From positions 1,646-65,645 of the forward strand of contig JACRCW010000025.1 in NCBI GenBank assembly GCA_016218805.1: 64,000 bases of DNA. The letters run 5' to 3'. The notes under the pieces were generated by a model that saw only the letters and a list, made by a program, of their open reading frames with translations, was not told the origin of the DNA and made no database searches. Below, piece after piece: positions 5,438 through 16,010 of this stretch. Made by a program: the position numbers and the translations under genes. The DNA comes from Deltaproteobacteria bacterium (lineage in GTDB: Bacteria; Myxococcota; JACRCW01). Within the stretch, counting starts at the first letter, position 1, and every line of letters starts with the position of its first letter.

Positions 5438-8257
5438 TCACGGCGCGCGCGGCACCACCGTGGCCGGGTCCGGCCCCACCACGGACAGGACGTACCGGCC
5501 GGTGTCCATGTACTTGCGCGCCAGTGCCCGCACATCCGCGGCGGTCACCGCCATGATGCGGTCCGCATACCGGGCGTGCTCGGCGTAGCCCAGGCCGTAC
5601 ACTTCGTTGAAGGACAGCGTGGCGGCCCGCGCACCCATCTTCTGCAGGCCAATCTCATGCGTACCGACCAGATAGCGCTGCGCGCGGTCCAGTTCCTTCT
5701 GGCTCACGGGCTCTTCGCAGACGCGGGTGAGCTCTGCCAGGATGCCGCTGAGCGCCTGGTCCACCTTGTCCGGGGACGTGCCCATGTAGACGGCCACGTA
5801 CCCGGGATCCACGCCCTCCAGCGAAAACGCCGTGATGGAGTACGCCAGGGACTGCTTGTCACGCAGCTCAATGAACAGGCGCCCGCCCTGCCCCGCCAGG
5901 ATCGTCGTGAGCACCTCCAGGCCGTAGCGGTCCGGGCTGCCCAGCGTGGCGCCGCGGAAGCCCAGCACCAGGTGCGTCTGCTCCTTGTCCTTCTTGAGCC
6001 GCGCAATCAGCGGCGCGGTGATCTCCGGCTCGGCGGGGAACACGCGCGGCGCGGGGAAGGGGCGGCTGCGCGGCAGGTCGTTGAACGAATCCTCCACCAG
6101 CTCGGCCACCCGCTCGGGGTCCACGTCCCCCACGACGGAAAGCACCATGCGGTCCGGGGTGAAGTGCTCGCGGTAGTAGCGCACCAGGTCGTCCCGCTTG
6201 AAGGCGGTCACCGTGTCACGCGTGCCCAGCGTGTCCATGCGGTAGGGGTGGTGCTTGTACAGCGTGCGGCCAAACTGCTCGAACGCCAGCCCGCTGGGGT
6301 TGTCCTCCTTGTTGCGGATCTCCTCCAACACCAGCTTGCGCTGCCTCTCCAGCTCGTCGGCAGCAAACGCGGGGCGGATGATGCTGTCCGCCATCAGGCT
6401 GAACCCGTGCTCAAAGTGCCGGGCCAGGAACTCACCGCGCACGCCAAAGCTGTTGCGGCCGGTGAAGCCCTCCAGCGTGCCCGCCGCGCTTTCCACCTCG
6501 TGCGCCACCTCCAGCGCGCTGGGTCCGCCTTCAATGCCCCGGGTGACCAGCTCCGCCATGAGGTTGTGGATGCCGTTGGTCTTGTCGTCCTCGTCGCGCA
6601 GGCCGCCCAGCCACACCGCGCGCATGCTGACCACGGGCACCTTGGGATCCGGCAGCACCAGCAGCGTGACGCCGCTCTGCAGCTGGCCGCGCCACACGCC
6701 CAGCTCGCCGCGGCTGAGCAGCATGCGCTGGCGGATCTTCCCCAGCTCGTCGGCGGCGGCGGCCACGGTCTCCTTGAGCTGCGCCTCGGCAACCGGCGGG
6801 GCCTGCTCGGGGAGCAGCGCCACCAGCGTGAGCCGGTCATCCATGAGGTACTTGGCCGCCACGCGCTTGACGTCCTGCGCGGTGACCGCGCGGATGCCCG
6901 CCATGTACTGGCGCTCAAAGTCCACGCTGCCGGCAACCGCCTCGTAGTAGCCCAGCTTGCGCGCCAGGCCCTGCACGGTCTCCTTCTGGTAGACCGTGTC
7001 AGACTCAATGATGGTCTTGGCCTTCTCCAGTTCCTCCGCGGTCACCTGCCCGTCACGCAGGCGGTAGGTCTCCACCAGCATGGCCTGCAGCGCCGCGTGC
7101 AGGTCACCGTGGTGCAGGGATGCGCCCACCATCAGCAGGCCCGGGTCCCGCGGCGTGTAGCTGTAGGCGTAGACGTCATTGACCAGCCGGCGGCCGTGTT
7201 TGACGCCGCGGGACAACCGGGACGAATCACCGTGGCCCAGCAGGATGGACAGCACGTCCAGCGCGTGGATGTCCGGGTTGAGCATGTCCGGGATGTGCCA
7301 GGCCAGGCTGAGGTGCGTCTCCTGGATCTTGTCCTTGCCCACGCGCACGCGCAGGCCCTGCTGGGTGGGTTCGGACTGGCGTGGCGGCAGCGGCTCGGAA
7401 GCGCCGGCAAACGCGCCAAAGTTGGCCTCCACCTTGCGCAGCGCCTCGGTGGTGTCAAAGTCACCGGTGATCACCAGCACCATGCGGTCCGGGCGGTAGT
7501 GGCGCTTGTAGAACCCGAGGATCTTCTCGCGCGTGAACGCGCGCACCGTCCTCTCGTAGCCGATCACCGGGCGGCGGTAGGTGTGCTTCTGGTAGGCGGT
7601 CTCAAAGGTCAGCTCGCTGATGACGCGCGCCGGCATGTCACGGCTGCGCTTGACCTCCTCAATGACCACCTCCAGTTCCTTGGCCAGTTCCGCCGGGTCA
7701 AAGCTGCTGTGCTGCACCGCGTCCGCCAGGACCTCCAGCCCCTGGTCAAAGAACCGGCTGGCCATGACCACGTGGTAGACGGTCTGGTCAAAGCTGGTCC
7801 ACGCGTTGATGTCGCCACCGGCCGCTTCCACCGCCTGGGCAATCTCACCCACGCCGCGCTTCTCGGTGCCCTTGAAGAGCATGTGCTCGTGGACGTGGGC
7901 CAGCCCCGCCTCGTCCTCGGACTCGTCGGCGGAGCCCACCTTGACCCAAACCTGGAAAGCCACCACGCGGGCCTGGTGGGACTCCTCCAGGATGACGGTG
8001 AGCCCGTTGGGCAACACGCGCCGGACGGGTCCTTTCTCCAGGACGGGGGCGGATTCGGACGGGCTTTGAGGGACCACGCGGTCTTCCTTTCCAGGGGCTT
8101 CCTGGGGTGGCTCCGGGGCCGGGGGCGGCGGAGCGGGCCGGGGCTGGGGTTCCGGGCGGGGGAGATGTTCCCGACGCGCCCCCTGTGTGCAAGCTGCCGA
8201 CGACACGGCGACAGCCAGGGCGACCCAGCAGGCCGCTGTTGGGACGCGGTGGCGCAT
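5438..8257 (-). CDS. M16-family zinc metallopeptidase (tandem insulinase-like halves), secreted/lipoprotein
   Basis: HVHEHMLFKGT (HxxEH inverted zinc motif); two M16 repeats; internal start MRHRVPTAACWVALAVAVSSAAC signal/lipobox at 8257. Confidence 0.8.
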   Translation of the reverse strand: MRHRVPTAACWVALAVAVSSAACTQGARREHLPRPEPQPRPAPPPPAPEPPQEAPGKEDRVVPQSPSESAPVLEKGPVRRVLPNGLTVILEESHQARVVAFQVWVKVGSADESEDEAGLAHVHEHMLFKGTEKRGVGEIAQAVEAAGGDINAWTSFDQTVYHVVMASRFFDQGLEVLADAVQHSSFDPAELAKELEVVIEEVKRSRDMPARVISELTFETAYQKHTYRRPVIGYERTVRAFTREKILGFYKRHYRPDRMVLVITGDFDTTEALRKVEANFGAFAGASEPLPPRQSEPTQQGLRVRVGKDKIQETHLSLAWHIPDMLNPDIHALDVLSILLGHGDSSRLSRGVKHGRRLVNDVYAYSYTPRDPGLLMVGASLHHGDLHAALQAMLVETYRLRDGQVTAEELEKAKTIIESDTVYQKETVQGLARKLGYYEAVAGSVDFERQYMAGIRAVTAQDVKRVAAKYLMDDRLTLVALLPEQAPPVAEAQLKETVAAAADELGKIRQRMLLSRGELGVWRGQLQSGVTLLVLPDPKVPVVSMRAVWLGGLRDEDDKTNGIHNLMAELVTRGIEGGPSALEVAHEVESAAGTLEGFTGRNSFGVRGEFLARHFEHGFSLMADSIIRPAFAADELERQRKLVLEEIRNKEDNPSGLAFEQFGRTLYKHHPYRMDTLGTRDTVTAFKRDDLVRYYREHFTPDRMVLSVVGDVDPERVAELVEDSFNDLPRSRPFPAPRVFPAEPEITAPLIARLKKDKEQTHLVLGFRGATLGSPDRYGLEVLTTILAGQGGRLFIELRDKQSLAYSITAFSLEGVDPGYVAVYMGTSPDKVDQALSGILAELTRVCEEPVSQKELDRAQRYLVGTHEIGLQKMGARAATLSFNEVYGLGYAEHARYADRIMAVTAADVRALARKYMDTGRYVLSVVGPDPATVVPRAP

Positions 8258-8382
8258 GGCGCGGCACCATGGGGCCGCACTCCTGCACGGCGCAAGCCCG
8301 CCCCGGGACGGGCGCCACCGCCGCCGATGGAGTATCAACCCGCGCAGGCAACGCACGGCGGCGGCCGGTGCGGGGAGTGACC

Positions 8383-8964
8383 ATGCGGAGTGCCGGGCTG
8401 GTGAAGGGATGGGCGGTGGCGCTGGCACTGGCGGCGGTGACGGTGGCCTGCCCCCGGCTGGGGCCCGGTGACCGCGGGGACCCGTGCCGCGAACACGCGG
8501 ACTGCGCGGATGACCTGGTGTGCGCGGATGACAAGTGCGGCACGCCGTGGGCGCGGCGCTGGCGGCTGACCGTGGTGGGCGCGCACATCAGCGCGCTGGA
8601 TCCCTCCGGCGGCGCCTGGGACAGCGATGACAGCGCGCCCGACCCGTACATGACGGTGACGGTGGACGGCGCCGAGGCGCTCCGCACGCAGGCCAAGCCC
8701 GACACGCTTACCCCGGCGTGGAACGAAGCGGTCACCGTGTTTCTGAACAACAACACCACGGTCCAGATCGCCCTGTGGGACGACGATTTCTTCTCCCTGT
8801 TCCCCGCCCCCATTGCCGCCACGCGGGATGCACCCGTGGCGCTGTTTGAGCTGCGGCAGGGCAGCACCACCGCGTACGCGGTGACCGGCACGCTGCCGGA
8901 CGGAGGCGGCGGCGGGATGCAGACCACCACGACAATCACCTACCAGTGGGACCTGGCGGAGTGA
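8383..8964 (+). CDS. C2-domain-containing lipoprotein
   Basis: Start MRSAGLVKGWAVALALAAVTVAC (lipobox); C2 signature LTVVGAHISALDPSGG..SDDSAPDPYMTVTVDG..TLTPAWNEAVTVF..IALWDDDFFS. Confidence 0.6.
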   Translation: MRSAGLVKGWAVALALAAVTVACPRLGPGDRGDPCREHADCADDLVCADDKCGTPWARRWRLTVVGAHISALDPSGGAWDSDDSAPDPYMTVTVDGAEALRTQAKPDTLTPAWNEAVTVFLNNNTTVQIALWDDDFFSLFPAPIAATRDAPVALFELRQGSTTAYAVTGTLPDGGGGGMQTTTTITYQWDLAE

Positions 8965-8977
8965 GCGGGGGTACCGC

Positions 8978-10324
8978 GTGAAGGTCTGGTCCGTTCCAGC
9001 GGCGGACATCCGCGGGCACAAGGACCGCGCCATGGCGCACCTGGCGCGCGGCCGCCCGGACCGCGCGCTGGGGGAGTACCTGGAGGTGCTGCGCGTCCGC
9101 CCGGATGACCTGGCGGTCCGGCAACGCGTGGGGGAGCTGTACCAGCGGGTGGGCCGCCATGCGGACGCCATCCGCGAATACCAGCACGTGGCCGGCCGCT
9201 ACGCGCATGACGGTCAGCCGCTCAAGGCCATTGCGGTGTGCAAGCTGATCCTGCGGCTGGACGCGGCGCACACCGAGACGCAGCGCGTGCTGGCCGGCCT
9301 GTACGGGAGCCCGCGCACGCCGGCGGGCGCGCTGCGCCTGCCCGCGTCCATGACGGCGGCCCTGCCGGATGCCGCGGCGCCCACGGCGTCCGCACCGACG
9401 GAGGAACTGGCCCTGGTGGTCCCCGCGGAGCCCGCGGACGGTCCCGGCGGTGCGTTTGACATTGACGTGGAGGCGCCGGCAGCGCCGTCCCAGCCGCGGA
9501 CGCTGGATGCCTCCCGCCTGCCCACCATTCCGTTGTTCCGGGACCTGGGGCCGCGGGCGTTTGCCATGTTGAGCGACCGGATCCACATGCGGCCGGTGGT
9601 GGCGGGGGAGGTGGTGGTCCGGGAGGGGGAGACCGGGCAGAGCATGTTTGCGGTGGTGCAGGGGAGCGTGGAGGTGCGGCGGGCGGGCCCGGACGGCGTG
9701 GTGCGCCCGGTGGCCCGCATGGGCGAGGGCGAGTTCTTTGGCGAGATGGCGCTGGTGGCGGACGTGCCGCGGCTGGCGACGGTGGTGGCGGCGGAGGACG
9801 GGCTGCTGTTTGAGTTCACGCGCGAGAAGATCCGCGAGCTGGCGGCGGAGCACCCCACGGTGGCGCGGGTGATTGAGCGCTTCCACCGGCAGCGGCTGCT
9901 GGAGAACCTGCTGCGCTCCTCGGCGCTGTTCCGCCCGCTGTCCGAGGGCGACCGCGAGCGCCTGGTGGCGGGCTTCCGCGTGCGCCGCGTGCCGCCGGGT
10001 ACCACGCTGCTGCGCGAGGGCGAGCCCGGCAACGGTTTCTACGTGGTGCTGCGCGGGCGGTGCCGCGTGACCCACGGCCGGCGCGAGCTCCCCGGCCTGC
10101 GCGAGGGCGACGTGTTTGGCGAGATCTCGCTGCTGGCCGGCGTGCCGGCGACGGCCACCGTGGTGACGGCGGAAGACTGCGTGCTGATGCGGCTGGCGCC
10201 GGCGGCGTTTGCGGACTTGGTGGCGGAGCAGGCGCACGTGCGGGACGCGGTGGCTGCGCTGGCGCGCGAGCGGCTGGCGCGCACGCACCCCGGCGCGGTG
10301 GCGCGCGCGGAGGGACGCGTCTGA
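8978..10324 (+). CDS. TPR repeat protein with two cyclic-nucleotide-binding (cNMP) domains
   Basis: N-terminal TPR-like helices; two CAP-family cNMP domains (GEFFGEMALV...; GDVFGEISLLAG...). Confidence 0.8.
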   Translation: MKVWSVPAADIRGHKDRAMAHLARGRPDRALGEYLEVLRVRPDDLAVRQRVGELYQRVGRHADAIREYQHVAGRYAHDGQPLKAIAVCKLILRLDAAHTETQRVLAGLYGSPRTPAGALRLPASMTAALPDAAAPTASAPTEELALVVPAEPADGPGGAFDIDVEAPAAPSQPRTLDASRLPTIPLFRDLGPRAFAMLSDRIHMRPVVAGEVVVREGETGQSMFAVVQGSVEVRRAGPDGVVRPVARMGEGEFFGEMALVADVPRLATVVAAEDGLLFEFTREKIRELAAEHPTVARVIERFHRQRLLENLLRSSALFRPLSEGDRERLVAGFRVRRVPPGTTLLREGEPGNGFYVVLRGRCRVTHGRRELPGLREGDVFGEISLLAGVPATATVVTAEDCVLMRLAPAAFADLVAEQAHVRDAVAALARERLARTHPGAVARAEGRV

Positions 10325-10333
10325 CCGGCCCCG

Positions 10334-13300
10334 TCAGGCCTTGGGGGGCGGGGGCTTGGGGGCCGCGGCCACGGCGGCCACGCCGCCCTTGAGGCGCTGC
10401 AACTGCTCCAGCGCCTTCTGGTAGTCCTCGGTCAGCTTCTTGCGCTCGTCCTCGCGCTGCTTATAGCGGGCCACCAGCTCATTGTACTTCTTACGCAGCT
10501 CCGCGGCCTCCGCCCCGCCCACGGTCTTCTTGGCCATCTCCTCCTGCAGGCGCTTGTTCTTGGTGGAGGCGTCCTGGAGGGTGGCGGTGATCATCTGGAG
10601 CTCGCCCTCCAGCTCCTCAATGCGCTCGTCGCGGTCCTTGAGGTTCTTCTCCATCTGCACGCTGGCGGTGCCGCCGCCGTGCGCCACCTGCTGCTCCAGT
10701 GCGGTGAGGCGCGTCTGCAGTGCGTTCTTCTCCACCGTGGAGGCGGCGCGCTCCCGGACGCGCGCGGTGCGCTCGCCGTTGGCATCCGTCTCGGCGGTGG
10801 TGGCACGGGCCTCCGCGCGCTCCAGGCGCCGCGTCAACTCCTCCACCTTGCCCTGCAGGCCGCGCTTCTCGTCCTCCAGCGCGCGGGTCACGCCCTGCTT
10901 CTCGCGCTCGCGGGCGGTCTTGTCGCGCGCGGCGGCTTCCTGCAGCTCCGCCAGGGAGCGCTCCTTGACGCGCATCTCCCCGCGCAGCGCGTCCAGCTCC
11001 ACCTTGTGGCGCGCCTCGGCCGCCGCCAGGTCCTGCTGCATCTGCTCGCGCTGCTTCTCCAGCTTCTCCAGGTTCTTGCGCACGGCCAGGCGGTCGCGTT
11101 CGCTCTTGTCGCGCTTGTCCTTCTCCTCGGCCAGTGACTTCTGGATGGTCTCCAGCCGCCCCTCGGAGTCCACGCGGGCGCGCGCCTCGGCGTCGCGCTC
11201 GGCGCGCATGGTCATCAGTTCACCGCCCAGGGACTGCGCCTGGACCTCGTGGCCCTCGGACTGCAGGCGCATGTCCTCCAGCATGCTGCGGGCCTCGGAC
11301 AGCTGCTCGGACAGCTCGGTGATCTTCTGGCGGGCGCGCTCCTCCAGCTTGGCGCGCGCCGCGTCCAGCTCGCCCTTCTCCATCCCAAACTGCTCGCGCA
11401 GGCTCTCCAGTTCATGCTCCACCTGGCCGCCGCGCGCCTGGGAGGCGGACAGCTCCGCGGTGAGGCGGGTCTCATTGTCCGTCTTGCGGCGCAGCTGGGC
11501 CTGCTGGTCAGCCACCTGGCCCTTGAGCTGGTCGCGCTCGGCGGTGGTCTCGTCCAGGGAACCGCGCGTCTGGCGCAGGGCGCGCTCGGTCTCGCCCAGC
11601 TTGGCGCGGGTGGCGCTGAGGTCCTTCTCCGCCTGGCGCAGGTGGTCGGTGGTGGTGGACAGCTCCGTCTCCAGGGACAGGATCCGGGACTGCTGCTCGC
11701 TGTCACGCCGGTCCGCCTGGGCCTTCTGTTCGGCGGCGGCCTTGCGCTCCTTGGCCAGCGTGCCTTCCAGCTTCTCGCGCGTCTGCTGGTGGCCGCGCTG
11801 CTCCTCGGCCAGGGTGGCTTCCACGCTGCCCAGCCGCTCGGAGAGGTTGTCGCGCTCGGCGCGGGAGGCATCCAGCGCGGCGGTGAGGCGCGCCACGTCG
11901 GACTCCAGCGTCTGGATGCGCAGGTCGCGCTCCCGCAGCGTGGTCTCCAGACCCAGGATCTGTTCGCGCAGCTGGCGTTCGGTCTCGGAGCGTTCGGTGG
12001 CATCGCGCTCGGCCTGGTCGCGCGTCTCGGCCAGGCGCTGCTCCAGGTTCTGGATGCGTTCACGCGCGCGCTCCACGTCCGTCTCCAGGCCCTGGATGCG
12101 CGCGGCGCGGGCCTGCAGCTCACCGTTCTGCTCCTCAATATGCGCGTTGCGCTCGGCCAGCAGGCGTTCCAGGTCGGTGACCTTGCCCTGCTCCTCCAGC
12201 AGCTGTGCCTCCAGCTCGGAGCCACGGCTTTCCAACCGGGCAATCTGGTCGGCGCGGGCGGCCAGCTCGGCCAGGTGCGCGTCGCGCTCGTTCTCCAGCT
12301 CGGTGCGCTCGCGGGTGAGCCCGGCCACCTTCTCCTGCAGGTCCTTCTTGTCGCGCGCGGCGGCCTTGTCCCCGTCCTCCTTGACGCGCGTGAGGTCCGC
12401 CAGTGCGGTCTGGACCTTGATGCGTTCCTCGGTCTCGCTCGTGAGCAGGGCCTGGACGCCTTCGCGCGTGCCAATCTCCTCGTCCAGCTGGGTGCGCAGC
12501 CCCTCCTTCTCCTTCTGCAGCTGCAACTCGCGGCCGTGCGCCTCCTCGGCCGCCTGGTCGGCGGACTTGCGGGCCTGGTCAATCCGCTGCTCCAGCGTGC
12601 GGATGTCGGCCACGCGTTCGGCCGCCACGGCCTCCATCTCCTCCTGCTCACGCGCTTTCTGCGCCTCCAGGTCGCGGTACCGCTCCTCGGCGGCCTGCCG
12701 GTCGCGCTCGGCGGCGTCACGCAGGTTCTCACCGTCCTGCAGCAGCGCGTCGCGTTCGCGCTCCATGCGTTGGACGCGCTCCTCCAGGATGGCGCCCTCG
12801 GCGGTGGCGGAGGCCAGCCGTTCGTCCAGCGCGGACAGGCGGACCTGGGTGTCCCGCAGCTCGTCCCGGACGGTGTCCAGGTCACGCGTGCGGGCATCCA
12901 GCGCCTCCTCCATCGCCTGGACCTCGCGCTCGCGCGCGGCCCACAGCTCGCGGGCGCGGCCCAGCTCGGCCTCGCGGCGGCGCAGGCTCTCGCGCAGGAA
13001 CTGCTGGCGGGCCTCAGGGCCGGCGTTGGGCGGCAGGGAACCGGTTCCCTCGTCCGGGCGGCCCTGGCGCAGCAGTTCATCCAGGGACCCGCCGCGGGCG
13101 GAGCGGCCCAGCCGGCTGCCGGCGCGCGGAATGGGCGGCGGGCCGCCCGCGGAAGGCGGCGGCGTCTGGGGCGGCCGGGAGAGGGGCGGGAGGGAATCCA
13201 CGCTGCCGGAGGACACCGGCGCCGCGTTTCCAAACGCCTGGTCCAGGCTGGCGTCCAGGCCCGCCTCGCTGGCATCCGCGCTCCCGTCCTGGCCGCGCTC

Positions 13301-13741
13301 CTGCACGGCCAGCACGTCGTCATCACCGCCGGACCGCGGGGGGGCCGGCGCGCCGTTGCCGCCCTGGAACGCACCGGGCGCCAGTTGCTGCATGCGCGCC
13401 AGCAGGTCCGCCAGCTCCACGGGCTTGTGCAGGTAGGCGTCCGCGCGCGTGGCCAGCTTCTGGTGCTGGGCAAACGCCTCAGGGGTGGCCTGGCCGGAGG
13501 TGAGGATCAGCGGAATGCCCTGCATCTCCGCGTTGCGGCGCAGCCGGTTGCACAGCGAAAACCCGCTCCCCCGCGCCAGCTCCACGTTGACCAGCACCAG
13601 GTCGGGCCGCTCGTTCTTGATGAGCTCCACGGCGGCATCCCCGTCACCAATGGTGAGGGCCCGCAGCCCGTGGGGCTGCACCAGGTGGTTGACCGATTCG
13701 GCAAAGGACGCATCCGCGTCGACGATCACCAGTTTTGCCAT
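10334..13741 (-). CDS. AglZ/FrzS-like protein: N-terminal pseudo-receiver domain plus ~1000-aa coiled coil
   Basis: Start MAKLVIVDAD at 13741 (CAT at 13739-41 checked); receiver fold lacks phospho-Asp (PDLVLVNVEL instead of LD); remainder is heptad-rich E/R/A/L coiled coil; Pro-rich C-terminus. Confidence 0.75.
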   Translation of the reverse strand: MAKLVIVDADASFAESVNHLVQPHGLRALTIGDGDAAVELIKNERPDLVLVNVELARGSGFSLCNRLRRNAEMQGIPLILTSGQATPEAFAQHQKLATRADAYLHKPVELADLLARMQQLAPGAFQGGNGAPAPPRSGGDDDVLAVQERGQDGSADASEAGLDASLDQAFGNAAPVSSGSVDSLPPLSRPPQTPPPSAGGPPPIPRAGSRLGRSARGGSLDELLRQGRPDEGTGSLPPNAGPEARQQFLRESLRRREAELGRARELWAAREREVQAMEEALDARTRDLDTVRDELRDTQVRLSALDERLASATAEGAILEERVQRMERERDALLQDGENLRDAAERDRQAAEERYRDLEAQKAREQEEMEAVAAERVADIRTLEQRIDQARKSADQAAEEAHGRELQLQKEKEGLRTQLDEEIGTREGVQALLTSETEERIKVQTALADLTRVKEDGDKAAARDKKDLQEKVAGLTRERTELENERDAHLAELAARADQIARLESRGSELEAQLLEEQGKVTDLERLLAERNAHIEEQNGELQARAARIQGLETDVERARERIQNLEQRLAETRDQAERDATERSETERQLREQILGLETTLRERDLRIQTLESDVARLTAALDASRAERDNLSERLGSVEATLAEEQRGHQQTREKLEGTLAKERKAAAEQKAQADRRDSEQQSRILSLETELSTTTDHLRQAEKDLSATRAKLGETERALRQTRGSLDETTAERDQLKGQVADQQAQLRRKTDNETRLTAELSASQARGGQVEHELESLREQFGMEKGELDAARAKLEERARQKITELSEQLSEARSMLEDMRLQSEGHEVQAQSLGGELMTMRAERDAEARARVDSEGRLETIQKSLAEEKDKRDKSERDRLAVRKNLEKLEKQREQMQQDLAAAEARHKVELDALRGEMRVKERSLAELQEAAARDKTAREREKQGVTRALEDEKRGLQGKVEELTRRLERAEARATTAETDANGERTARVRERAASTVEKNALQTRLTALEQQVAHGGGTASVQMEKNLKDRDERIEELEGELQMITATLQDASTKNKRLQEEMAKKTVGGAEAAELRKKYNELVARYKQREDERKKLTEDYQKALEQLQRLKGGVAAVAAAPKPPPPKA

Positions 13742-13787
13742 GGGGCCCTGCTCCCGGGATGGGAAGGATGGGGAATTGCGGCGCGCG

Positions 13788-15917
13788 TCAGGGGCAGTTC
13801 TGCAGCTCCGGCCCCTGCAGGATCTGCTTGATGCGGTCCACCATGGGGCTGCCGGGGTTGAGCTCCACGTATTTCTTGTAGTGCGTCTTGGCCTCGCAGT
13901 ACTTGGCCTGCCGCGCGTAGGCCACGCCCAGCAGCTTGTGGGCATCCGTCAGGGACGGGTCCAGTTTGAGGGCCGTCTTCCCCTTCTGCACCGCATCATC
14001 AAAGTTGCCCAGCAGGATGGCGCGGTTGCCGTCCTCCAGCAGCTTCTTGGCCTCGGCGGCCTTGCCGCCGCCGGCGGGCTGGGCATTGTCGGCGGGCGTG
14101 GGGGACGGGCGCGGCGTGGGCTGCGGGGTGGGCCGGGCGGGCTGGGCGGAGGACCGGGCCTTGAGCCGGAGCGCCTTGTCCAGGAGTTTCTGCGCGTCCT
14201 TGTTGCCTTTGTCCAGGTCCAGCACGTCCTCGGAGTAGGTCTTGGCGCTCTGCCAGTCGCCCTGCTGCAGCGCGGCCTCGCCGTCCTTGAGCCACTTCTT
14301 GATGATCTGCGCGCGGGTATTGCGCGCCTCCACCAGCGCGCGGTCACGGGCGCGGGTGCCCTCAATGACCTCCAGCAGCTGGCGGTAGCACCGCACGGGG
14401 TCCGTCCCGCACAGGCCCATGGCGTCCTCCAGCTGGCGCTGCGCGCGGATCTCGCGGTCCACCTGCTCCAGGCACTCGCGCGCCTTGGGCACCAGGTCCT
14501 GCACGCGTTCGCAGATCTCCTTGGCTTCCACAAAGTTGCCCTTCCGGAGCGCGTCCAGTGCTGCCTTGTGCTGGCGCTGCGCCTCCGCCACCGGGTCCTC
14601 CCTGACCGGTGCCGGCATGGGCGTGGGAGCGGGCGTGGGGGCCGGGTCCCGCGGCGGGTTGCGCGGGGGCTTGCGGTCATCCGGCGGCTTGTGGTCCTCC
14701 GGGGGCGCCGCGGAGGCGGGCGCCGGCGGGGTGACGGCGCCGCCGGAGGAGGTTGCGGGCTTGGGGTCCTTGCCGCCGGGCCCGCCGGAAAACGCAAAAC
14801 CGATGACGATGAGCAGCACCACCACCCCGGCGCCGGCGCCGGCGACGATCTTGACGGGGAAGCCGCCGGCCTTCACGCGGCTGGTCATCACCGTCGTGGA
14901 GCCGCCGCCCATGCCGCCATCCGCGTCGGTGTCCTCGCGCTTGAGGCGCTCTATTTCTGAGGCGGACAGCTGGAAGCCCTCGCCGGGCTCCACAAAGCGC
15001 AGCTTGACGTGTCCCAGCTCAATGATGTCGCCCTTGCGCAGGTCAATCCGCTTGTACTCCTCCCCGTTGACCAGCACGCCGTTGGCGGAGTTGAGGTCCA
15101 CCACCGTGTAGCGGGCGCCGTCCCGGACAATCTTGGCGTGGTTGCGGCTGACGCTGCGGTGGTCCAACACCACGTCATTGTCATCCGTGCGGCCAATGAC
15201 GTTCTCCGGCTTGGTGAGGGCGTAGCTGTTGCCGGCCAGGCCGGTGGACACGGCCACCACGCGCGCGGAGGCCTCCTCGGCGGATGCCGTCAGGTCCGAC
15301 GTACGGACGATGGCGGTGGGCTCGGAACGGCGGGTGGGCTCCGGGTCCGGCGTGGGTTCGCCGGCCGCGGGCAGCGGCATGCGCGCGGTGGCCTCCGGAG
15401 GCGCGGAGGCGTGCAGCGCCGCGGCGGGCGCCGGCATTTCCCGCTCCGTGCGGGTCTGGTCCGGGTCCAGCCCGCCGGGGGGCGGCGCCACCATCTGGCT
15501 GGTGACCTCGTCAGGCGCGGCCCCGGGCAGCGTCCCTTCAGCCAGCGCCGTGGCCATGGACACCCGCTGCGTGGACTCCTCCGGGTGGCCACCCGCCCCA
15601 GCCAGCCCCGGCGAATCCGTCCCCTCCTGCTGGATGACCAGGTGGTAGTCGCCGATCTCGATGAGATCGCCTTCGTTGATGGAGACGCGGGTGTTGACCT
15701 GGATGCGGTCACCATTGACGCGGATGCCGTTGTAGCTGTCCAGGTCCTCAATGAAGACGTCCGCGCTGGCCTTGGAGATGCGCGCGTGGTGGCGGCTGAC
15801 GTTCCGCTCCGTCAGACGGATGTTGTTGCCTTCCTTGCGGCCAATGGTGATTTCGTCTCGCATGATCGGGACGACGGTGGTCTTCCCCTCGTCATCCTCG
15901 ATGATGAGCTTGTACAT
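13788..15917 (-). CDS. tandem FHA-domain protein with TM segment, Pro-rich linker and C-terminal TPR
   Basis: Two FHA cores (GR..GNNIRL..VSRHHARI; IGRTDDNDVVL..VSRNHAKI..SANGVLVNG); hydrophobic AGAGAGVVVLLIVIGFAF; PxxP-rich region; TPR C-terminus. Confidence 0.8.
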   Translation of the reverse strand: MYKLIIEDDEGKTTVVPIMRDEITIGRKEGNNIRLTERNVSRHHARISKASADVFIEDLDSYNGIRVNGDRIQVNTRVSINEGDLIEIGDYHLVIQQEGTDSPGLAGAGGHPEESTQRVSMATALAEGTLPGAAPDEVTSQMVAPPPGGLDPDQTRTEREMPAPAAALHASAPPEATARMPLPAAGEPTPDPEPTRRSEPTAIVRTSDLTASAEEASARVVAVSTGLAGNSYALTKPENVIGRTDDNDVVLDHRSVSRNHAKIVRDGARYTVVDLNSANGVLVNGEEYKRIDLRKGDIIELGHVKLRFVEPGEGFQLSASEIERLKREDTDADGGMGGGSTTVMTSRVKAGGFPVKIVAGAGAGVVVLLIVIGFAFSGGPGGKDPKPATSSGGAVTPPAPASAAPPEDHKPPDDRKPPRNPPRDPAPTPAPTPMPAPVREDPVAEAQRQHKAALDALRKGNFVEAKEICERVQDLVPKARECLEQVDREIRAQRQLEDAMGLCGTDPVRCYRQLLEVIEGTRARDRALVEARNTRAQIIKKWLKDGEAALQQGDWQSAKTYSEDVLDLDKGNKDAQKLLDKALRLKARSSAQPARPTPQPTPRPSPTPADNAQPAGGGKAAEAKKLLEDGNRAILLGNFDDAVQKGKTALKLDPSLTDAHKLLGVAYARQAKYCEAKTHYKKYVELNPGSPMVDRIKQILQGPELQNCP

Positions 15918-16010
15918 GGCGCGAGAACGCTCCGCTGGGACCGAGAACGATTTGGGTAACACAAAGTCGTGAGCGGCCTCAAGGTGGACGCCGTGCTCAG
16001 CGCGCCTCCA

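Follow-up and report, generated by a model that had tools for sequence, protein, structure and literature searches.

A predicted C2-domain lipoprotein of the myxobacterial cell envelope and the knot-C2 family to which it belongs

Introduction

C2 domains are Ca2+- and membrane-binding modules known chiefly from signalling and trafficking proteins of eukaryotes. The C2 domain of perforin works outside the cytoplasm at high Ca2+, where it docks a secreted protein on its target membrane, and the C-terminal domain of the Clostridium perfringens alpha-toxin is a bacterial extracellular beta-sandwich that binds membranes in a Ca2+-dependent manner and is called C2-like; it is a PLAT domain and not a member of PF00168, and is fused to a phospholipase C. 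Here we describe a gene on a stretch of 64,000 nucleotides (the window; contig JACRCW010000025.1, positions 1,646 to 65,645, assembly GCA_016218805.1) whose product is very likely an exported C2-domain protein. It belongs to a large family, termed here the knot-C2 family for the cysteine knot that precedes the C2 domain, which by sequence searches is found almost only in myxobacteria.

A 2012 survey considered C2 domains as not known outside eukaryotes, and their origin as therefore unclear (PMC3495828), and recent papers propose the Myxococcota as donors of eukaryotic lipid pathways (PMC13012113, PMC12004948). Our full-text literature searches returned no publication on bacterial or prokaryotic C2 domains, and nothing relevant linking the C2 domain and Myxococcus. 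The C2 call itself is not new, as precomputed Pfam annotation already tags these proteins; what is new is the recognition of C2 in a bacterial, extracytoplasmic, predicted lipid-anchored and knot-fused context, and of a phylum-restricted, unstudied family.

The C2 domain of the window protein

The gene (8383..8964, + strand, stop codon included) extends from ATG 8383 to TGA 8962–8964 and contains 193 codons, with a Shine-Dalgarno-like element (GGGGAG) 7–12 nt 5′ of the start. The GC content at its first, second and third codon positions (0.68, 0.57 and 0.90) is the pattern expected in a window of 72% GC, which argues that the open reading frame (ORF) is a real gene. The NCBI entry for the identical 193-residue product is HY904_03485, a 'hypothetical protein' of a metagenome-assembled genome (MAG) labelled Deltaproteobacteria bacterium, and no NCBIfam model matches it.

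The C2 domain corresponds to residues ~57–191 (8551..8955, +). Pfam C2 (PF00168) matches residues 81–137 with 37.2 bits (gathering score 22; E 3.7e-9), and the motifs PDPY, T-x5-T-x2-P-x-W-N-E and D-x-D are all in place. A first-pass annotation of this DNA had proposed a C2 signature from acidic loop motifs, and these are located at residues 81–94 (SDDSAPDPYMTVTV), 108–115 (TLTPAWNE) and 129–138 (IALWDDDFFS); the HMMER comparison with Pfam that it suggested is significant and exceeds the curated threshold, and two further searches agree. In the first, a phmmer search of the PDB, only C2 domains are at the top, led by Arabidopsis CAR4 (1.7e-4) and followed by SMURF2, SMURF1, Itch and PKC-epsilon. 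In the second, a profile of the family matches solved C2 domains at E-values of 1e-17 to 1e-7, with those of synaptotagmin-1, E-Syt2, cPLA2 and PKC at 1e-15 to 1e-8. Pfam C2 is also matched by 72 of the 77 aligned family members.

The predicted structure gives the same answer. An AlphaFold2 model built on the 77-sequence family alignment (pLDDT 89.9, pTM 0.81) contains eight predicted C2 strands (residues 58–68, 88–94, 97–101, 112–121, 126–133, 142–146, 161–169 and 181–191), the last two of which flank a Gly-rich beta7–beta8 loop (LPDGGGGGMQT, residues 170–180; 8890..8922, +) that is modelled with low confidence (mean pLDDT 61 for residues 171–180). Foldseek searches of the PDB with this model yield 141 matches at E≤1e-3, and the best 50 of the 141 are all C2 domains, with no other fold among these 50; the matches include Itch, PKC-epsilon, intersectin-2, Munc13-1 C2B, cPLA2, dysferlin C2A, perforin and PLC-delta1. 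The C2 beta-sandwich that the first-pass annotation had anticipated is thus the fold predicted. TM scores normalised per target are 0.6–0.71 (intersectin-2, 0.71), while the query-normalised score is only ~0.45 because 56 of the 193 residues fall outside the C2 domain. An earlier AlphaFold2 run on a two-sequence alignment (pLDDT 60, Foldseek TM ~0.2) was discarded and is superseded by the 77-sequence run.

That poor two-sequence run, and the restriction of the Pfam alignment to residues 81–137, are the two points that could favour a chance or convergent resemblance of an unrelated beta-sandwich, or an ORF that is not a gene at all. They are outweighed by a Pfam score above the curated threshold that is shared by the 72 relatives, an alignment to cPLA2 that is collinear across the whole domain, the uniformly C2 identity of the best 50 structural matches, the complete set of C2 motifs, the third-position GC content of 0.90, and orthologues at 40–60% identity that conserve the structural and ligand positions. 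This explanation is untenable after these tests, and we accord it next to no probability. By score and by predicted fold, assignment of the window protein to the C2 domains is solid.

The domain is predicted to be of type II topology. The family profile at 57–177 aligns collinearly with residues 13–136 of the cPLA2 C2 domain, which is the full domain, and PKC-epsilon is also collinear, whereas synaptotagmin aligns only across the core. The topology is assigned from this whole-domain collinearity with cPLA2 together with the position of the acidic loop 1 between strands 1 and 2.

The knot-C2 family

An exhaustive HMMER search of 1.84 billion cluster representatives identifies 914 proteins at E≤1e-3, of which 150 are at E≤1e-10; word-indexed homologue searches found few relatives (2 with the single protein, 7 with the 77-sequence alignment and 12 with an alignment of knot plus C2). 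Proteins and loci from these searches are referred to by P and L numbers where they need to be told apart. The best matches are proteins of 140–420 residues, apart from ~15 long multi-C2 proteins, three of which were checked and contain 5–11 Pfam C2 repeats and look eukaryotic. The short members share a common plan, in which a signal peptide, in most cases with a lipobox Cys, precedes a low-complexity linker, at least one Cys knot and then the C2 domain, and carry the signature motifs W-D-x(2)-G-G-x-P-D-P, D-T-x(2)-P-x-W-N-E and D-x-D. Identity between paralogues is ~25–30%. Ten long stop-to-stop ORFs were scanned for domain fusions and revealed only weak extra matches below cut-off, a metallopeptidase motif in L034 and a somatomedin B domain in L053.

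The taxonomic distribution was surveyed with a degenerate DNA pattern for W-D-x2-G-G-A-P-D-P-[FY] against one genome per species of the Genome Taxonomy Database (GTDB). This motif is present in 31 of 155 family proteins and absent from the orthologue group of the window protein, such that the taxonomy applies to the wider family only. The scan identifies 73 loci, with 74 occurrences of the motif, and each of the corresponding 74 ORFs is recognised by the family HMM (E 6e-6 to 5e-49). All of the loci come from MAGs, and their labels are record titles: 59 of the 73 are explicitly Myxococcota (Polyangiales/Polyangiaceae, Labilithrix, Sandaracinaceae, Kofleriaceae, Nannocystales, Myxococcaceae, Archangiaceae and 'Myxococcales'), four are 'Deltaproteobacteria', six have unspecific labels and four are labelled as other phyla. 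These last four (L034, L037, L042 and L047, labelled Enterobacteriaceae, Bifidobacterium breve, Rickettsiales and Dehalococcoidaceae) might suggest a wider host range, which we reject: their GC contents of 65–70% are at odds with the labelled taxa, and they are probably contigs of myxobacterial origin that were mis-binned into unrelated MAGs, which GTDB uses as species representatives. The statement in the first-pass annotation that C2 domains are uncommon in bacteria holds for bacteria in general, but the window protein is no isolated case: it is one divergent representative of a large family of paralogues that is common in the Myxococcota.

Paralogy within genomes is indicated by two motif-positive family genes in each of five MAGs (ACE_MYX5, P-RSF-IL-17, STL-MYX5, SMAG_U6175 and MJ-time_bin-8340) and by a tandem pair of family genes in L066 (2773-4016, −). 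True copy numbers per genome are probably higher than the scan count, since only about one-fifth of the family proteins carry the motif.

A second bacterial C2 architecture, of ~310–350 residues, is represented by P0010, P0015, P0048, P0057, P0107, P0114, P0135 and P0143. These proteins have a type I-like signal peptide with no lipobox and a C-W-D-x-C motif, and in most of them the query profile matches two to three stretches; P0010, labelled Deltaproteobacteria bacterium, has two Pfam C2 stretches. Their Lys-rich composition suggests lower-GC hosts.

Calcium-binding loops

The two predicted Ca2+-binding loops were delineated by conservation within the family and by alignment to synaptotagmin-1. 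Loop 1 spans residues 69–87 (SALDPSGGAWDSDDSAPD; 8587..8643, +) and includes W79, D80, P86 and D87, and loop 3 spans residues 133–142 (DDDFFSLFPA; 8779..8808, +). Among 210 family domains aligned to the family HMM, and using the window numbering, D87 is conserved in 100%, W79, D80 and P86 in 99% each, D133 in 97% and D135 in 96%, with T102 (83%) and W113 (81%) less strictly kept; a fifth acidic position, five residues after D135 in a typical member, is Asp in 80%. In the profile alignment D87 corresponds to D178 of synaptotagmin-1 C2A, D133 and D135 to D230 and D232, and the fifth Asp to D238. D80 would, by our own reading of the alignments, take the place of synaptotagmin-1 D172, with loop 1 being one residue longer. 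Judged from these alignments, the canonical Ca2+ site, with all five Asp residues, is retained in the family as a whole.

The window protein itself has four of the five canonical ligands (D80, D87, D133 and D135), which we take to be equivalent to the first Ca2+ site of synaptotagmin-1. Its loop 3 carries a two-residue insert, has Ala142 at the position of the fifth Asp, and has a hydrophobic tip formed by F136, F137, L139 and F140. The acidic Ca2+ loops noted in the first reading of the sequence are thus largely, and not wholly, of canonical form.

Signal peptide, lipobox and cysteine knot

The N-terminus has the features of a lipoprotein signal (residues 1–23, MRSAGLVKGWAVALALAAVTVAC; 8383..8451, +). 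The basic residues R2 and K8 constitute an n-region, residues 9–19 a hydrophobic core, and residues 13–23 (ALALAAVTVAC) a lipobox that satisfies a PROSITE PS51257-type rule, coded as a regular expression. The signal peptide (MRSAGLVKGWAVALALAAVTVA) is followed directly by Cys23, at which the mature protein is predicted to begin and to carry its lipid. A Cys is kept at this site in every complete orthologue (P0002, LGAC; P0003, MAAC; P0005, LAGC; L080, LCGC), which bears out the lipobox proposed in the first-pass annotation, and the same rule is passed by 86 of the 126 (68%) short family members that start with Met. The +2 residue is Pro rather than Asp or Lys, and by the Lol sorting rules this would presumably favour release from the inner membrane. 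Together these features suggest that the window protein is probably a Sec-exported, N-terminally lipidated envelope protein.

The anchor is the part of this assignment with a direct competitor, in which signal peptidase I cuts the precursor and the knot and C2 domains are released in soluble form to the periplasm, vesicles or the medium, where the protein could coat or mark foreign (prey) membranes. The lipobox has Thr at position −3, where the usual residue is Leu, and VTVA before the Cys could also pass for an AxA-like site of signal peptidase I; clear type I signal peptides without a lipobox occur in some family members (e.g. P0010 and P0048), and the Myxococcota are predators that secrete many proteins. 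Against release are the Cys after the hydrophobic segment in every complete orthologue, including the more canonical LGAC and LAGC, and the 68% of Met-start members that pass the lipobox rule. We regard soluble release as quite unlikely, and it would in any case be compatible with membrane docking; a lipid-anchored envelope protein is the interpretation followed here.

The mature protein begins with a Pro/Gly-rich linker (PRLGPGDRGDP, residues 24–34; 8452..8484, +), for which the model has a mean pLDDT of 83 over residues 21–30. An RGD sequence within it (PGDRGD) was considered as a candidate motif; it is present in P0004 and not in P0002 (PAQKGD), and is probably fortuitous. The linker leads into a four-cysteine knot with the pattern C-x5-C-x5-C-x4-C (C35, C41, C47 and C52; residues 35–52; 8485..8538, +), which is modelled with pLDDT 97–98 and is predicted to include a beta-hairpin (46–48/51–53). 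The four Cys columns are filled in 80–87% of the 210 family domains, the remainder being gaps, and these conserved cysteines fit an oxidising, extracytoplasmic location. The closest Pfam entry, DUF7107, scores 15.3 bits (cut-off 24.6; E 0.026; 19 of 48 profile positions), and weak matches to it occur in 21 of the 77 family members; since the score lies below the cut-off, the knot is described by its Cys pattern only and is not assigned to DUF7107.

A putative membrane-docking mechanism

A mechanism can be proposed by analogy with the C2 domains of synaptotagmin, PKC and cPLA2, in which Ca2+ neutralises charge, bridges to lipid and allows loop insertion; what is said here of the window protein's lipidation and final location, of its binding of Ca2+ and of lipid, and of any role as a tether is inferred. 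The mature protein would be held by a lipid anchor at Cys23, followed by the ~10-residue linker, the disulfide-bonded four-Cys knot acting as a stalk, and the type II C2 sandwich. The acidic pocket of loops 1 and 3 (D80, D87, D133 and D135, with D82, D83 and D134 nearby) would bind at least one Ca2+. Ca2+ is plentiful outside the cytoplasm. Binding could neutralise the very acidic C2 domain and bridge to phospholipid head groups, and the hydrophobic tip of loop 3 may insert into the bilayer as in cPLA2. The mature protein has a pI of 4.2, a net charge of approximately −14 and no basic patch, so that any lipid binding would need cation bridging or hydrophobic insertion. With one acylated end and one end whose docking is switched by Ca2+, the protein could act as a peripheral membrane clamp or tether. 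The candidate target is either the membrane in which it is anchored or an apposed one, and could be the outer membrane (at its inner leaflet), the inner membrane, or the membrane of a vesicle or of a neighbouring or prey cell.

Several observations weigh against this scheme. The fifth canonical Asp is replaced by Ala142, and the orthologue P0004 also lacks the D-x-D pair (REEN), which together suggest that Ca2+ binding may be weakening in the subgroup of the window protein; the lipobox is atypical at position −3, as noted above. Among eukaryotic C2 domains, many have protein and not lipid ligands, or act independently of Ca2+, and the bacterial outer surface presents lipopolysaccharide (LPS) rather than phospholipid. 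Taking both sides together, we consider Ca2+-assisted membrane docking to stand at about an even chance, and the complete description of a lipidated envelope C2 lipoprotein that docks on a membrane, mechanism included, to be marginally favoured.

Orthologues and neighbouring genes

The closest relatives of the window protein are P0002 (60% identity) and P0003–P0008 (40–47% identity; E 1e-50 to 1e-28), and the group as a whole is matched at E-values of 1e-70 to 1e-28. Its members share a variant loop 1, WD(S/G)D(D/G)S(A/P)PDP, a hydrophobic loop 3 (DDDFFSLFP, DDDLLSILP, DEDFLIP or DDDFLIP), a Gly/Thr-rich beta7–beta8 loop and the absence of the fifth Asp. P0008 (123 residues) is a truncated gene call in L080; its frame extends to ATG 2831 (L080 2831-3372, +) and the extended product contains a full signal peptide, the lipobox LTLCGC and the Cys knot.

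The first-pass annotation placed the gene between a divergent M16 peptidase gene and a gene for a cyclic nucleotide (cNMP)-binding protein with tetratricopeptide repeats (TPR), and this arrangement is confirmed. The leftwards gene (5438..8257, −) encodes a tandem M16 (pitrilysin-type) peptidase of 939 residues with two Pfam M16 and two M16_C domains. Its start is most likely ATG 8257 rather than GTG 8428 of the mechanical ORF, and the product has a lipoprotein signal of its own (MRHRVPTAACWVALAVAVSSAAC; lipobox VSSAAC), such that two lipoprotein genes diverge from an intergenic region of 125 bp (8258..8382). This is presumably the site of both promoters; a sigma-70-like site was not found in it, a result that is uninformative at this GC content. 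The rightwards neighbour (8978..10324, +) starts 13 nt downstream of the C2 stop codon and encodes a predicted cytoplasmic protein with TPR and two cNMP-binding domains by Pfam. No terminator-like site is present between the two genes, and they are possibly co-transcribed. The TPR/cNMP gene recurs only in the closest relative (L001), in the same arrangement and with a product that is 73% identical.

The divergent M16 gene recurs in four of the five orthologous loci examined. The M16 and C2 genes are next to each other in the window, at L075/L077 (P0005) and at L079 (P0003), and in L080 (P0008) the two are separated by an inserted Uma2-family endonuclease gene; the M16 gene is absent from L078 (P0004), in which a CAP-domain gene is upstream. 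The C2 proteins are 40–47% identical where the M16 proteins are 76–82% identical, so that the C2 protein evolves much faster. In the wider family an all-against-all BLAST of the ORFs in the 73 loci found no conserved partner: the C2 family itself forms the one widespread cluster (66 loci), and the next is present in 10 loci. The M16 pairing is seen in closely related genomes only, so that it could reflect shared descent of the gene order instead of a functional unit, and because the 73 loci share no neighbour gene, the knot-C2 protein is likely a self-contained module.

These neighbourhood data bear on a further alternative, namely that the C2 fold serves to bind a protein or a glycan instead of a lipid, whether or not Ca2+ takes part, with exopolysaccharide, peptidoglycan, the LPS core or the neighbouring M16 lipoprotein peptidase as example ligands. 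A recurrent M16 pairing would accord with such a role, as would the faster evolution of the C2 protein, since outward-exposed interaction surfaces often behave in this way, the loss of the fifth Ca2+ ligand and the remodelled loop 3 of the orthologue group, the missing D-x-D of P0004, and the protein-binding habit of many eukaryotic C2 domains. The four Asp ligands and the loop 1 Trp are however strongly conserved, a hydrophobic loop tip is a classic membrane-insertion feature, and the M16 linkage is limited to close genomes and has no counterpart in the wider family. A protein or glycan ligand is therefore unlikely, if less so than soluble release, and Ca2+-assisted docking on a membrane remains the reading that we prefer.

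Two further features of the orthologous loci can be recorded. The gene upstream of P0004 (L078 4297-5937, +) lies directly adjacent on the same strand and encodes a 546-residue protein with a CAP/SCP/PR-1 domain, a family best known from eukaryotic secreted proteins. In L075 the gene order ROK kinase–M16–C2 is also kept.

Elsewhere the window carries Ser/Thr kinase and FHA-TPR genes and one for a response regulator that includes a coiled coil of ~1000 residues. As the survey motif does not cover the orthologue group, it is this gene content, together with the NCBI label, that places the window organism in the Myxococcota. The response regulator is a 1203-residue ORF (10334-13945, −) with an N-terminal receiver domain followed by ~1000 Glu/Arg/Ala/Leu-rich, coiled-coil-like residues, and its true start is likely at MAKLVIVDAD; it resembles the FrzS/AglZ-type motility regulators of myxobacteria. 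An FHA-FHA-TPR gene (13788-15962, −) adjoins it.

Origin and significance

The knot-C2 family combines a eukaryotic-type module, with its ligands largely intact, and a predicted envelope location in a social, predatory phylum, and it comprises hundreds of cluster representatives. It could be an old bacterial C2 lineage, a prokaryotic relative or even the source of the eukaryotic C2 domains. Conservation of the five ligands, occurrence in several myxobacterial classes and orders, deep divergence and the lack of a close eukaryotic donor among the proteins seen are the points that speak for this. An ancient transfer from a eukaryote to a myxobacterium followed by expansion would fit the data equally well, and for that reason we hold the old-lineage reading to be very doubtful. 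The family does allow phylogenetics to test whether C2 is a eukaryotic invention.

Should the proposed mechanism be true, it would provide Ca2+-dependent membrane docking in the myxobacterial envelope, with candidate roles in vesicle biology, outer-membrane exchange and prey contact, and a single-domain bacterial C2 protein offers a tractable system for C2 biophysics. The window protein is a somewhat degenerate member, and the advance lies in describing the family rather than a new fold.

Comparison with described C2 systems

The closest described systems are the type II eukaryotic C2 domains of cPLA2-alpha, PKC-epsilon/eta, PLC-delta1 and Itch/Smurf, with which the window protein shares sequence homology and a predicted eight-stranded sandwich. 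With cPLA2 the likeness extends over the full length of the domain, to acidic loops 1 and 3 at one tip and to a similar hydrophobic tip of loop 3. The eukaryotic proteins are cytosolic, whereas the window protein is predicted to be exported and is probably lipid-anchored in the envelope, and its C2 domain is preceded by a disulfide knot rather than by a catalytic or signalling domain. Its loop 1 is longer and contains an almost invariant Trp, and its fifth Asp is missing. Identity to any eukaryotic C2 domain examined is at most 36–46% over 35–59 residues.

Perforin is among the Foldseek matches (3nsj and 5ug7). Its C2 domain directs a pore-forming MACPF protein to its target, whereas the window protein has no effector domain by Pfam or NCBIfam. 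The extended synaptotagmin (E-Syt) tethers follow a like logic, with one end anchored in a membrane and a C2 domain under Ca2+ control that can bind a membrane surface, although tethering by the window protein is conjectural; with 56.7 bits, E-Syt2 ranks among the top single-domain hits of the family profile. E-Syts differ in having a hairpin anchor, an SMP lipid-transfer domain and three to five type I C2 domains, as opposed to the predicted acyl anchor and single type II C2 domain of the window protein. The alpha-toxin of C. perfringens is not among the matches listed in the PDB phmmer, Foldseek or family-profile searches.

Within the Myxococcota, the wider knot-C2 family (P0003–P0151; L002–L074) has the same architecture and signature motifs as the window protein. 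The window group is a divergent branch of it, distinguished by the variant loop 1, the hydrophobic loop 3, the lack of the fifth Asp and the linkage to an M16 peptidase gene.

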